Positions 42,979-47,599 of a stretch of DNA of 64,000 nucleotides are shown piece after piece. The position numbers and the translations under genes were made by a program. The notes beneath the pieces are model-generated. The model was not told the DNA's origin. It ran no database searches and saw only the letters and a list, made by a program, of their open reading frames with translations. Numbering within the stretch: the stretch's first letter is position 1; each line of letters begins with the position of its first letter. The stretch spans positions 18,463 through 82,462 of the forward strand of contig JBDKTA010000033.1 in the NCBI GenBank assembly GCA_039680605.1, given 5' to 3'. Source of the stretch: Planctomycetaceae bacterium. GTDB taxonomy: Bacteria; Planctomycetota; Phycisphaerae; SM23-33.

Positions 42979-43537
42979 TGGGGCGTGCAGGCCTGCCTGC
43001 CGGCGTGCAGGTTCTCGCCGAAGGCAAGGTTCTGCACGCGGGGCGCAGGTGGCAACGGGTGCTGTAACCCTAAATTTCATCCCTTGGGGAGTTTTGGCCC
43101 CGGAGGGGCCTCCGTGCTTAGCCCAGGGCGCAGGGCGAGCGAAGCACGCCCAAGCCCTGGGAAGGATGCGCAAATTCAACGAGCCCCGGAGGGGCGGCCG
43201 TGACGATAGCGGACAATTACGCCCGCCAACCCGCCCATCGCTGCGTGGAGGAGTAGCCCCGCGGCCGGGGCTGGAGCCTCTTCGAGGCTCATTGTCAGCA
43301 TCTTCGTCGTGGCTCTTCTCAGTGATCTTTGTGTGCTTTGTGGCAAGGTCTTGCTGTTCCCCCATTCGTGTCATTGTCCATGCCCAAGTCCATGATGGGG
43401 CCTTTTCTGTCCGTTCCGACGGATATCTTACACGCGCGGTGGGCATGGCCAGATACTATTCCCACCCGCAAGGCCCGTCAACACGGCCGCCGGTTTGGTT
43501 TCTTGTTGCTCATTTCCTTCTGATCTTGAGAGCGACT

Positions 43538-44830
43538 TCAATCTTCTTTAACGGCTCCGACTTTTCCGCCAAAGAAACGTTCAGCCAGCGAATGAAATGG
43601 AGTCTCATCCGCAGACTGGCGGTCAAACACAGCCAGAGGTTCCTTGGAGAGGATCACCAAGACTCGTGCTGCAAGTTCGGCCAGAAGAGCATTAGGTTGC
43701 CCAGATTCGGAGGACGCGCCGATCTCGTACATTTGTTTTTTGTATCCTTCAAATGCATATGAGGCGGCTTCTTTGAAGGCATAAACCTCCTGAAGCCTTA
43801 TCGTATGGCCGTAATTTCTGGCACAAAACCATGCAAGCCAGACCCATGGAGCGGCAAATGGCAGTTTCCGGAGGAATCCCACCCAGATGTGGGCTTCTGT
43901 ATCGACCGGGAAATAGATAAACGCGAAAATAATTGATCCAGCAAGAAGAATAATACTTGCCCAGAAACCAATCAGCCACCCCCGTATAGAGTGATTCAGT
44001 TTAGCCCCTCTCTGGGCGAATGCCGTCGCAAGTCCTGCCGAGGTGGCTTGAGGAAGCAGATGATCAATACGTTTCTGATCGACCTCAGCCTGTTTTACTA
44101 GTTGGTCAAGCTTGGTCTGGGTTTCACCAAGGTGGCTCTGTAGTGCAGCAACATCATCAGCAAACGCACGAACCACTCTTGAGTTAGCGGCTGCGGACTC
44201 GGATTCTCCTGATACGGCCTTTGCTATTTCTTCTATTTCATCACTTTGTTTCTCTATTTGCTCTGAGGTCGACTCAATCTTCTTCTTCAGTACTTCGACT
44301 GCTTCCGACACCGCCTCGGTCTTTTCCAATATCTGTTCAGCACCGCTCAGCCGGGCAGTGTTTTCCTCCAAGAGGTCGTTACTTCTTTGAACCATGGAAA
44401 TTGCTTCCGCTAGATCTCCGCTCAAACCCAAAGCTACTTCCTTGCCATTCTTCGCGCCCACCAACGTCAAAGGGTAGAGCGACAGGAACGCTTGATTAAG
44501 GTTGTTTATGAAGGTTGGCAGTACATCGTATCGACCAGCCACGATATTGCGAAGATTAGATAGGAGGTTTGCCATAGAACTGGCCAACAAAGCTCGTGCA
44601 ATCTTTACTCTTACCGACGTCGTTTTCGATTCGGTGATTCTATTGCCCCAAATGACAACCGAAGTCACGGCATCATCGACATCGTCGAAAGCAAGATCTC
44701 TCAAATGTGAAGAAAAAAGAGACGGGTTACTCTTGCATTGCGAAGATACCTTGTCCCAAAGCGTGCTCAGCTCGGCGAATTGTGGGAGCATAGTTGACAC
44801 CCTTTCTATCAGATGTACTCCTGAGTACAT
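43538..44830 (-). CDS. Hypothetical protein: long N-terminal coiled-coil region + two C-proximal TM helices (island-encoded, co-oriented with vsr)
   Basis: 430 aa. An acidic coiled-coil segment of ~270 aa, then TM helices WLIGFWASIILLAGSIIFAFIYF and IWVGFLRKLPFAAPWVWLAWF, then an ~80-aa tail. No recognisable family. AT-richer DNA. Confidence 0.6.
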   Translation of the reverse strand: MYSGVHLIERVSTMLPQFAELSTLWDKVSSQCKSNPSLFSSHLRDLAFDDVDDAVTSVVIWGNRITESKTTSVRVKIARALLASSMANLLSNLRNIVAGRYDVLPTFINNLNQAFLSLYPLTLVGAKNGKEVALGLSGDLAEAISMVQRSNDLLEENTARLSGAEQILEKTEAVSEAVEVLKKKIESTSEQIEKQSDEIEEIAKAVSGESESAAANSRVVRAFADDVAALQSHLGETQTKLDQLVKQAEVDQKRIDHLLPQATSAGLATAFAQRGAKLNHSIRGWLIGFWASIILLAGSIIFAFIYFPVDTEAHIWVGFLRKLPFAAPWVWLAWFCARNYGHTIRLQEVYAFKEAASYAFEGYKKQMYEIGASSESGQPNALLAELAARVLVILSKEPLAVFDRQSADETPFHSLAERFFGGKVGAVKED

Positions 44831-44905
44831 ACCATATAGTTGGCGTCTCGTGTGTTCAAAGGAAAACCTGAAATCAGTTGCCTTGGCTGGTCCTGCCCGT
44901 GCGTC

Positions 44906-45466: not shown

Positions 45467-46660
45467 ATGAAATCGATTGAGCTGTTTGCCGGAGCGGGCG
45501 GGTTGGCCATCGGTTCCGCGAAAGCGGGGTTCAAGCATGAAGCCGTTCTAGACTGGGATCACGATGCTTGCGAGACGCTCAGAAGGAACGTAAAGAACAG
45601 GATACGATACGCCCGCGACTGGGAAGTCATCGAGGGAGATGTCAAAGAATATGACTTCAGGCAACACAAGCAATCCGTCGAGTTTATCTTTGGCGGTCCT
45701 CCATGCCAGCCTTTCTCACTGGGCGGAAAGCACCGCGGCAGCGAAGACTCGCGCAATATGTTCCCCGAGGCGGTTCGTGCGGTACGAGAGATTTGCCCAC
45801 GAGCGTTCGTGTTCGAAAATGTAAAAGGCTTCCTGCGTCGAGGATTCAGCAACTATTTTCATTACATCCTCAACCAACTGCGGTTTCCAACGGTAGCTAG
45901 GCGCGGCGATGAGGAGTGGACAGATCATCAGGCCCGTCTGGAAAGCATATATGCGGCGAACAACTTCCGCGACCTCCACTACAAGGTCATGCCCAAGCTG
46001 CTGAACGCTGCTGACTATGGGGTTCCTCAACGCCGCGAACGGGTTTTTATTGTGGGGGTACGTTCCGATGTCCATGCCGAGTTCTCATTCCCGGACCCGA
46101 CGCACGAGGAAGACGCGTTGCTGTATGACAAATGGGTCACCGGGGACTACTGGGAACGCCACGCCGTTCCCATACGGCAACGAGAGTTGTTCCCGCGACG
46201 GCTCCAGCAGAAGATCGAGATGCTCAGGGGTCTTTGGTCACCAATGATGCTGAAGCCTTGGCGAACGGTTCGTGACGCTATCGCTGATTTACCCGCACTC
46301 GCAGTGGGTGAAGAGTCCAAGGCAATTCCGAATCACTACCTGAACCCCGGAGCGAAAATGTATGATGGGCATAATGGTAGCCCACTTGATGAGCCGGCCA
46401 AGACGCTGAAGGCGGGCGACCACGGGGTTCCTGGTGGAGAAAATACTCTCAGGCTTCCCGATAATTCGATCAGATACTTCTCAGTTCGTGAGTGTGCGCG
46501 ACTGCAGACTTTCCCCGACAACTGGATATTCCAAGGCTCGTGGACTGAATGCATGAGGCAGCTTGGCAATGCCGTGCCAGTGGTGCTAGGGCAGATTGTC
46601 GCCAAAAGACTGGCACAGGTCGTTTTGGCGGCAGCCATCAAGCAAGACCAGGCTATCTAG
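45467..46660 (+). CDS. dcm: DNA (cytosine-5)-methyltransferase
   Basis: AAGGAG RBS. ELFAGAGG (motif I), GGPPCQPFSLGGK (motif IV PCQ), ENV (motif VI), and a C-terminal target-recognition/motif IX-X region. Confidence 0.9.
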   Translation: MKSIELFAGAGGLAIGSAKAGFKHEAVLDWDHDACETLRRNVKNRIRYARDWEVIEGDVKEYDFRQHKQSVEFIFGGPPCQPFSLGGKHRGSEDSRNMFPEAVRAVREICPRAFVFENVKGFLRRGFSNYFHYILNQLRFPTVARRGDEEWTDHQARLESIYAANNFRDLHYKVMPKLLNAADYGVPQRRERVFIVGVRSDVHAEFSFPDPTHEEDALLYDKWVTGDYWERHAVPIRQRELFPRRLQQKIEMLRGLWSPMMLKPWRTVRDAIADLPALAVGEESKAIPNHYLNPGAKMYDGHNGSPLDEPAKTLKAGDHGVPGGENTLRLPDNSIRYFSVRECARLQTFPDNWIFQGSWTECMRQLGNAVPVVLGQIVAKRLAQVVLAAAIKQDQAI

Positions 46661-47481
46661 AGTCTGGCGGCCACGGGGGGATGAGTTTTCAAGTGCTGCA
46701 GGATCCTCGATTTGATCTGCTCAGCAGAAGCCGCATTCGGAACAGTGCTTTTCGTCCAGGCCCATTTTCGCCCGGGATGCAAGGTGTCCCATGGCGATCT
46801 CGTGTTCTTTCTGGTTTCAGAACTGTCCCCGTGTTTTCCGAACCCAAAACAGATACCTACTTCGTTGTTCCAGATGGGCTGAAAGTTCTCGATGAGGTAA
46901 GTCTCCGCCGTGTTCTGCCAAGCGCTCTTGACGACGAGGTATCGGCAATCGAAATCTTCCACTCGCAGATTGCTCGCGGCAGCGATACTTCTCTGATGGT
47001 CCCGGAGTCGATTAGACAATCGTTCACCTTGGTCGACTACGGAGTCCGCTCCGTGTTCAGCAGGGTCAGCCTTGCCGACATAGATAGGCGTCTCTGTTCC
47101 AGAAAGAGCCGTATAAACATCAAACTCGCCGTTGTAGTAAATTGCGTATACACCAGACCCATAGAAACGTGTGAGCTTGCTTAAAGGAAGCCGGGGTTGA
47201 GCCAATAACGTGGTGGCTATAAGCTTGCCCATCATTTGCGGGTCTGACGGGTCCAGGACAGAATCTGGCAAGCGGACCGGATCCATCGCGACAGCCAGCT
47301 TCTGCAGCCTTCCCACCAGAACTGTGATCGTCTCCCGAAGCTCCGTTCGCGTCGGCCCCAGCACTGTCGGATTATCAGGCAAGCTTTCGGGGATGGCGTT
47401 TAGGAGTTCCTTCATCAAACGAAGAACTTCCTTCGGGCGGAACGCGTGTACTCCAGATTTCTTCTCGGGTCGAGTTGCCAT
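46657..47481 (-). CDS. Eco29kI-like GIY-YIG Type II restriction endonuclease
   Basis: GVYAIYYNGE...PIYVGKADP GIY-YIG core. Size and architecture fit the Eco29kI family. Convergent with dcm, overlapping its stop. Confidence 0.65.
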   Translation of the reverse strand: MATRPEKKSGVHAFRPKEVLRLMKELLNAIPESLPDNPTVLGPTRTELRETITVLVGRLQKLAVAMDPVRLPDSVLDPSDPQMMGKLIATTLLAQPRLPLSKLTRFYGSGVYAIYYNGEFDVYTALSGTETPIYVGKADPAEHGADSVVDQGERLSNRLRDHQRSIAAASNLRVEDFDCRYLVVKSAWQNTAETYLIENFQPIWNNEVGICFGFGKHGDSSETRKNTRSPWDTLHPGRKWAWTKSTVPNAASAEQIKSRILQHLKTHPPVAARL

Positions 47482-47599
47482 GCGGAGGATTCTATATAAG
47501 TGACGGCCGCAGTGCTAGCATCTTCTCATAGACGGAGAAGGCACTTAGGCGATTGTTGGCCCGCTGCGCGCTGCTTCTCGTGCCCGAAGCCTCGGCGAA

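Follow-up and report, generated by a model that had tools for sequence, protein, structure and literature searches.

A low-GC islet of about 4.7 kb in the genome of a Planctomycetaceae bacterium (GenBank assembly GCA_039680605.1, contig JBDKTA010000033.1) was found to carry a restriction-modification (R-M) system with a Vsr companion and, next to them, a member of a large and widely distributed gene family, here called X, whose product combines a coiled coil with two predicted transmembrane (TM) helices. The islet was analyzed within a stretch of 64,000 nucleotides (positions 18,463 to 82,462 of the forward strand), referred to as the window, and all positions below are those of the window unless a locus is named. 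The reality of gene X, its architecture, the size of its family, its conservation pattern and its genomic associations are established. Taken as a whole, the data are best explained by an ordinary R-M/Vsr set accompanied by a stand-alone membrane-acting candidate for abortive infection or phage exclusion, to which a probability of about 0.5 is assigned. Within that explanation, X is probably a defence gene, and its action by membrane damage is proposed more tentatively.

Gene model, architecture and family of X

X was initially annotated as a 430-aa product beginning 75 nt after vsr, with the reservation that it could be a frameshift artefact. A frameshift is excluded, since the open reading frame (ORF) is uninterrupted and can be aligned over its whole length with homologs of 411–434 aa. 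Its start is most likely the ATG at 44791, giving 417 aa and a vsr-X gap of 114 nt, rather than 44830 (430 aa, 75-nt gap), because a GAAAGGG element 7 nt upstream, the N-termini of the homologs and the NCBI model (P0001, this Planctomycetaceae metagenome-assembled genome) agree on it. Full-length alignments extend across at least eight bacterial groups ranging from phyla to orders (Planctomycetes, Nitrospirota, Ignavibacteria, Verrucomicrobiales, Bacteroidia, Alpha- and Gammaproteobacteria, and Endomicrobium), and because of this spread X is taken to be a real gene under selection.

The AlphaFold2 (AF2) model of full-length X was all-helical and reasonably confident over the N-terminal ~110 residues (predicted local distance difference test, pLDDT, ~80; residues 1–110 in blocks of 63–88), with helices at residues 2–21, 35–51, 60–84 and 88–112. 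The acidic coiled coil, which had been placed at the N-terminus, is present (hydrophobic periodicity peak of 3.5 residues; net charge −11 over segment 121–270) but lies centrally, behind this helical domain of ~112 residues. When the C-terminal 221 residues were modeled with 18 sequences (pLDDT 77.5, predicted TM-score, pTM, 0.54, hairpin 83–95), the coiled-coil helix passed unbroken into TM1, followed by a loop of ~8 residues and by TM2, which extended into a long juxtamembrane helix. TM2 falls below the hydropathy threshold yet was modeled as part of the hairpin at pLDDT 85–95. The motif LLPxAxSAGLAxxFxxR directly precedes TM1, with L246, P247, S251–L254, F258 and R261 invariant or nearly so, and the C-terminal tail, earlier regarded as short, comprises ~85 residues and is conserved. 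The charge distribution fits a predicted N-in/C-in topology.

Conservation was lowest in the N-terminal domain (1.15 bits per column) and increased through the coiled coil (1.34) and the pre-TM1 motif with TM1 (2.1) to TM2 and the RxQExYxFKExxSxAFxGY helix (2.59, the highest). The most conserved residues lie in the cytoplasmic juxtamembrane helices and TM2, and the short periplasmic loop varies. Many family members (400–520 aa) match the profile only from position ~115–155 onward, so the N-terminal domain is exchangeable and the membrane module constant; judged from these alignments, the family follows what reads as a variable-sensor, conserved-effector pattern.

The description of X as a protein of no recognisable family holds for curated collections. 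Searches of Pfam, NCBIfam and PADLOC returned sub-threshold coiled-coil matches only, as did searches with 67 diverse relatives (Pfam, PADLOC) and with plasmid and phage relatives, and no significant full-length match to X or its relatives was obtained with the PADLOC-DB v2 models (JetC, LmuB, ZorA and PbeC at E ≥ 8e-8 over ~100 residues). Matches to SMC, JetC, LmuB, ZorA, PbeC, ATG16 and tape-measure proteins, which cover residues ~135–260 only and score far under curated cutoffs, were rejected as compositional noise. A PDB sequence search gave no match, and the PHROGs match was to phrog_30912 (2e-12), labeled function unknown. The family is nevertheless large: when 1.84 billion cluster representatives were searched exhaustively with a profile hidden Markov model, 3,972 clusters were recovered at E ≤ 1e-3, of which 2,486 reached E ≤ 1e-10 and 407 reached E ≤ 1e-30. 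This overturned the near-orphan status that word-index searches had indicated (9–14 relatives only), and one member has been catalogued in the P2 hotspot described next.

Distant members sharing the C-terminal module of X were found on 34 plasmids (Vibrio, Acinetobacter, Klebsiella, E. coli, Xanthomonas, Leptospira), in the temperate Providencia phage PSTCR8lys and on 33 IMG/VR contigs. P2-like prophages of Klebsiella and of E. coli HS (ECHS_RS04510, WP_001003256.1) carry an X relative between gpA/DinI and the portal gene, the site defined as an anti-phage hotspot by Rousset et al. (2022; PMC9122126). System #102 in Table S5B of that study consists of one gene with no domain, annotated '2 TM' (Phobius), with 32 occurrences, and the X relative WP_001583354 is labeled 'hypothetical' in Table S5A; #102 is not among the P2 systems reported there as validated (PMC9122126). 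X and the relatives of #102 were connected by BLASTP (E 4e-14 over 214 aa) and by hhalign (98% probability, E 2.5e-13, columns 229–406). The family was not found among the systems described in the main text of Vassallo 2022.

Just upstream of the P2-hotspot relative is a gene for a 225-aa hypothetical protein (L031 5580–6257; ECHS_RS25360, WP_000700647.1) with no match in Pfam or PADLOC. A dedicated two-gene system formed by this gene and the X relative was considered and rejected, since Rousset Table S5A also records the 225-aa gene alongside AIPR and other cassettes. It looks like a semi-conserved gene of the hotspot border rather than a partner of X.

Carriage on prophages and plasmids, and the presence of SieB-type 2-TM cassettes in the same P2 hotspot, would also suit a protein that does not kill the cell but acts at the membrane as a sensor, a tether or a superinfection-exclusion factor, blocking DNA entry, marking injection sites or anchoring defence complexes. 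The short, variable periplasmic loop and a long cytoplasmic stalk that could contact partners are compatible with such a role, and Kiwa (PMC11785009) is a precedent for a membrane-embedded sensor. Conservation is strongest in the cytoplasmic juxtamembrane helices and TM2, not in the periplasmic loop, and the 25 loci compared below offer no conserved partner for tethering; a non-lethal role is regarded as unlikely.

Genomic neighborhoods of X

The initial annotation had presented vsr and X as an operon and had raised the question whether X homologs in other genomes adjoin vsr or R-M genes. When the Vsr, DNA methyltransferase (M) and restriction endonuclease (R) proteins of the window were used as tblastn queries, no vsr, dcm or Eco29kI homolog was detected at 25 other distinct X loci, and no recurrent partner gene was seen at these loci. 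The Vsr-X pairing is therefore not conserved, and X is an independent single-gene module, not a partner of Vsr. A co-transcribed X that works with Vsr or with the 5-methylcytosine (m5C) system would agree with the shared strand, the gap of 75–114 nt and the lack of a terminator-like site between the two genes in the window, but is already contradicted by these comparative data, and the GC content at third codon positions (GC3) of X (0.47) lies several standard errors from that of M and R (0.62 and 0.60); such a partnership is very improbable.

Within three genes of X at the 25 loci, 99 neighbors were compared. The commonest Pfam families, nearly all of R-M, defence or integrase type, are ten that match two neighbors each, namely seven R-M families, ThsB_TIR, phage integrase and DUF6538, and PADLOC agreed with these assignments. 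Individual arrangements are listed in Table 1. At L004 the Type I operon is broken by three extra genes, showing how much cargo fits among hsd genes. On the near-identical human-gut metagenome contigs L071–L075 and L103, an Abi-family (abortive-infection) gene, X (at ~8000–9200) and the gene of a large Type ISP-like enzyme share a single strand, with X 256 nt downstream of the first and ~3.7 kb upstream of the last, forming a compact multi-system defence cluster.

In addition, 80 distinct X-family loci were annotated locally with 33 reference proteins already identified, so that all counts are lower bounds, and 66 of these loci were informative. An R-M gene was located within 5 kb of X in at least 15 of the 66, and at six of those loci X lies inside the Type I operon. 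The number of R-M genes per 10 kb fell with distance from X, from 0.55 (0–2 kb) to 0.24, 0.07 and 0.00 (6–8 kb), and, once the loci that had donated reference proteins were removed, from 0.39 to 0.08, 0.09 and 0.00. All R-M neighbors (23/23) are on the strand of X. Short gaps (4–17 nt), shared strand and decay within 4 kb place the linkage at the scale of operons, beyond co-occurrence in islands. Homologs of X adjoin R-M genes at other loci, with no vsr homolog at the 25 compared, and, as had been anticipated, they reside in defence or mobile contexts and, among annotatable loci, do not occur broadly as housekeeping genes.

The same measurements bear on the idea that X plays no part in defence and is accessory cargo, for instance a protein for membrane stress or maintenance or a selfish gene that stabilizes mobile elements, hitch-hiking in the variable regions where R-M systems land. 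Most X loci are without annotated neighbors, some have housekeeping ones, and non-defence genes also occur in variable hotspots (Rousset et al., 2022; PMC9122126), as cargo of this kind would lead one to expect. Linkage at operon scale rather than island scale argues against it, as does a defence-like accessory profile, with broad, patchy phyletic spread and the complete E. coli X-relative cassette in 10 of 5,426 complete E. coli genomes, and cargo status is held to be improbable.

Nesting in Type I operons at six independent loci, co-orientation with R-M genes and the steep drop of linkage with distance could also mean that X guards the adjacent R-M system, being kept inactive by R-M proteins and freed to damage the membrane upon Ocr-, ArdA- or Stp-like anti-restriction. 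In its broadest form, the family would consist of widespread R-M guardians, stalked 2-TM effectors residing in several R-M operon types, whose N-terminal domain would monitor the restriction state, anti-restriction proteins or unrestricted phage DNA and whose membrane module would collapse the membrane potential once restriction is beaten. Many unrelated defence genes are, however, known to be nested in Type I operons as well. Moreover, a single N-domain subfamily of X (27–45% identity over the full length) is found beside Type I, ISP, III, II N4/N6 and II m5C systems and beside a protein combining NOD-like-receptor (NLR) and TIR features, which makes a dedicated R-M protein partner unlikely, and in the window X stands beside the Type II system, not within it. 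A membrane effector restrained by HsdMS (RonA) and PrrC are precedents for guarding (bioRxiv 10.1101/2023.04.06.535777). Given that the R-M neighbors of X are promiscuous and that X also occurs without R-M, as in the P2 hotspot, a guard function is considered unlikely, both for X and for the family; if true, the PrrC/Ronin principle would extend far past E. coli and Type I systems.

The islet, its restriction-modification genes and other features of the window

An AT-richer island in a high-GC backbone had been described, and base composition bears this out. From ~43250 to 48000 the GC content is 0.47–0.58, compared with 0.62–0.70 in the flanks, and GC3 is 0.47 in X, 0.53 in vsr, 0.62 in M and 0.60 in R, compared with 0.82–0.91 in four backbone genes. 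The extent first given was 43250–47520; on the right the low GC continues a little further, to ~47990. On account of the GC and GC3 anomaly the islet is assigned to foreign, horizontally acquired DNA; this origin, taken jointly with the identities of the R-M genes and vsr given below, is almost certain. The flanking genes encode a Glucosamine_iso/PIG-L (NagB/PIG-L) fusion and a GFO_IDH_MocA oxidoreductase. No tRNA gene was found in the whole window and no integrase gene in the islet. Since the GC3 of X is several standard errors from that of M and R, different donors or arrival times are suggested for X (possibly with vsr) and for the M/R pair.

All four ORFs were recovered at the coordinates first annotated, apart from the start of X, with M and R both intact, convergent and overlapping by 4 nt, and the three enzymes were identified as annotated, each above curated cutoffs. 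The vsr product matched TIGR00632 with 109.3 bits (cutoff 97.85), PF03852 at 1e-16, PADLOC Vsr at 1.7e-21 and E. coli Vsr (PDB 1CW0) at E 8.5e-21, with FVDGCFWHG opposite FTHGCFWHH and the DGCFWH core aligned. M matched PF00145 (2.1e-64), TIGR00675 (3.7e-53) and PADLOC MTase_II (2e-125), and its Pfam match starts at residue 1 when 45467 is taken as the start. R matched the full PF09517 RE_Eco29kI model (1.4e-42, residues 105–264), PADLOC REase_II (7e-36) and the Eco29kIR structures PDB 3MX1, 3MX4 and 3NIC (E~1e-27), and carries an N-terminal extension of ~100 aa; ...GVYAIYY...PIYVGKA... in its translation is read as a GIY...YIG-type motif. Vsr nicks T:G mismatches that result from deamination of 5-methylcytosine and thereby offsets the mutagenic cost of the methylase, and M, R and Vsr are, as judged from these matches, a conventional m5C Type II system with a Vsr companion, which is already-known biology.

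The recognition site of Eco29kI is CCGCGG. This hexamer occurs 74 times in the window against 70 ± 8.6 expected; it is thus not avoided, as would be expected if the R-M system either arrived recently or recognizes another sequence. In the divergent vsr/M intergenic region no match to a sigma-70-like consensus was found by a scan that does not cover planctomycete promoters.

At the left edge of the islet, a 38-nt direct repeat pair, present in only two copies in the window (zero expected from shuffles), encloses a GC-rich insert of ~290 bp. The insert holds 7-nt tandem repeats (AGTTCGG/A, 42935–42986) and a repeated GCCCCGGAGGGGC element, and the segment 42896–43257 resembles either the footprint of an insertion or a small element that is not autonomous. 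The 38-nt repeat was considered as an att-type boundary and rejected: there are just two copies, both at the left edge, and so it does not bound the islet. The right edge is non-coding and contains, at 47600–47650, an almost perfect palindrome of 25 nt (92% complementary, loop of 1 nt) that may serve as a terminator or for recombination; the R gene starts on one side of it, and on the other lies the 3′ end of the oxidoreductase gene.

Elsewhere in the window, a second low-GC islet (12000–16000, GC 0.53–0.57) contains the DpnI-family, DUF3800, Fic/DOC and HTH_3 genes of Table 1, of which the adjoining last two look like a putative toxin-antitoxin pair. The 6S/SsrS RNA gene falls on a GC dip at ~37.5–38.2 kb.

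Table 1. Features of the window, and gene arrangements at other loci of the X family (orf, open reading frame; +, together with)
Feature	Position	Strand	Remarks
Low-GC islet, ~4.7 kb	43258..47990	.	GC and GC3 below flanks; between two backbone metabolic genes
38-nt direct repeat pair	42896..42933 and 43220..43257	+	92% identical; copies the 3′ end and stop codon of the upstream NagB/PIG-L gene
Gene X, coiled-coil/2-TM protein, 417 aa	43538..44791	-	candidate single-gene defence module
X, N-terminal helical domain, ~112 aa	44456..44791	-	four helices in AF2 model; putative sensor or interaction domain
X, central acidic coiled coil	44045..44428	-	residues ~135–262 (430-aa numbering)
X, TM1, W285–F307 (430-aa numbering)	43910..43978	-	sole Kyte-Doolittle window >1.5; model pLDDT 83–95
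X, TM2, ~I315–Y340	43811..43888	-	Trp-rich; runs into juxtamembrane helix RxQExYxFKExxSxAFxGY
vsr, very-short-patch T:G mismatch endonuclease	44906..45316	-	TIGR00632, PF03852, PADLOC Vsr, PDB 1CW0
vsr/M divergent intergenic region	45317..45466	.	presumed promoters, read from sequence
C5-cytosine DNA methyltransferase (M), Dcm type	45467..46660	+	PF00145, TIGR00675, PADLOC MTase_II
Eco29kI-family GIY-YIG Type II restriction endonuclease (R)	46657..47481	-	PF09517, PADLOC REase_II, PDB Eco29kIR
DpnI-family methylation-dependent restriction endonuclease	12462-13250	+	PF06044 8.5e-55 plus DpnI_C; second islet
DUF3800 protein	13718-14335	+	second islet
Fic/DOC protein	14708-15301	-	second islet; adjoins HTH_3 gene
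HTH_3 regulator	15320-15808	-	second islet
6S/SsrS RNA gene	37882-38041	+	Rfam RF00013, 61 bits (gathering score 46)
Locus L004 (ENA ERZ27317826 contig)	3-8176 of contig		hsdM - Bro-N - hsdS - X - UvrD-like helicase - 451-aa orf - hsdR
Locus L034			hsdS-X-DUF488-orf-hsdR
Locus L017			hsdM-orf-X-hsdS-hsdR
Locus L076			hsdM-hsdS-X-hsdR; gaps 15 nt and 4 nt
Locus L009			X + Type ISP enzyme
Locus L014			X + Type III res
Loci L013, L119			X + N4/N6 methylase pair
Locus L007			X + 1,287-aa NACHT-TIR protein
Locus L033			X + ThsB-TIR + HATPase_c_3
Locus L023			X + OLD nuclease
Loci L030, L071-75			X + Abi-family genes
Loci L011, L027			X + integrases

Proposed function of X and comparison with known systems

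We infer a defence function for X, and with it the oligomerization, trigger and membrane-damaging output of the following scheme. X would oligomerize through its coiled coil and stay idle in the inner membrane, where the variable cytoplasmic N-terminal domain would sense a cue of infection. The coiled-coil stalk, which forms one helix with TM1, would relay the signal to the conserved 2-TM module, and this module would compromise membrane integrity or the proton-motive force. Infection would thereby be aborted or the phage excluded, and X would back up the R-M system as a second line of defence. The modeled layout fits the sensor-transducer-effector order frequent among single-gene abortive-infection proteins, and a membrane-acting abortive-infection effector can reasonably be inferred for X.

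Several observations weigh against this assignment. The role in defence is assigned from genomic association; at ~40 of the 66 informative loci the small reference set recognized no neighbor, and a few X loci adjoin housekeeping genes (e.g. penicillin amidase, Dus). The full-length model is weak (pLDDT 65, pTM 0.32), and the strict hydropathy threshold is met by TM1 only, TM2 being Trp-rich with R321/K322 near its start. Structure searches yielded generic alpha-hairpin matches only, which leaves the effector mechanism without a structural anchor: the best Foldseek match of the full-length model in the PDB had E 0.75, and the BFVD fold search gave zero matches at E ≤ 1e-3. The promoter and terminator scan found fewer sites than in shuffled sequence, and co-transcription of vsr and X is putative. 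Finally, the family is absent from PADLOC (2023) and from the DefensePredictor supplements consulted, and the literature consulted reports no experiment on any member.

The family comprises thousands of clusters in many phyla, on plasmids and in prophages, is covered by no Pfam, NCBIfam or PADLOC model, and has as its sole earlier record the hypothetical '2 TM' cassette of the P2 hotspot. If X is a defence gene, a common single-gene system is added to the known repertoire, with a possible new case of layered immunity in which restriction is backed by a membrane suicide switch. The E. coli HS member ECHS_RS04510, in its P2-like prophage, makes the family testable in a model organism.

The R-M part of the islet resembles the Eco29kI R-M system (PDB 3MX1/3NIC) combined with Vsr (PDB 1CW0), in that an m5C methyltransferase, an Eco29kI-family GIY-YIG endonuclease and Vsr are all present. 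It differs from Eco29kI by the N-terminal extension of the endonuclease, and from the E. coli dcm-vsr paradigm by the orientation of vsr, which is divergent from the methyltransferase gene in the islet and overlaps the methyltransferase 3′ end in the paradigm.

X shares with Ronin (HsdMS + RonA) and with PrrC/EcoprrI a location in, and co-orientation with, Type I R-M operons, and RonA is a membrane effector, as is proposed for X. In Ronin this small effector is held by HsdMS and freed by anti-restriction proteins (bioRxiv 10.1101/2023.04.06.535777). Neither RonA (61 aa, one TM helix) nor PrrC, a soluble anticodon nuclease, has sequence similarity to X. At 417 aa, X combines a coiled coil with a sensor-like domain, and its loci include other types of R-M system or none at all.

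With the SLATT domain (SMODS- and SLOG-associating 2-TM effector) and with the SieB, retron or CBASS (cyclic-oligonucleotide-based anti-phage signaling system) 2-TM effectors, X has in common an alpha-helical 2-TM hairpin, cytoplasmic helices and a defence-associated context. Three SLATT proteins were among the weak BFVD matches to X (E 0.09–0.98, TM-scores 0.27–0.40; best E 0.09, TM-score 0.40), none of them significant and all to be taken as no more than a lead, and Pfam SLATT models gave no match to X at E ≤ 0.1 or to the 67 relatives at E ≤ 1e-3. Unlike SLATT, X has no linked nucleotide-signaling enzyme.

A further counterpart is Rousset #102, which is homologous to X over the end of the coiled coil, the 2-TM hairpin and the juxtamembrane helix and resembles it in length and as a single-gene cassette. 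Identity is only ~25%, the N-terminal region of #102 is unrelated and its periplasmic loop is longer; #102 is phage-borne, whereas X of the window adjoins an R-M system.

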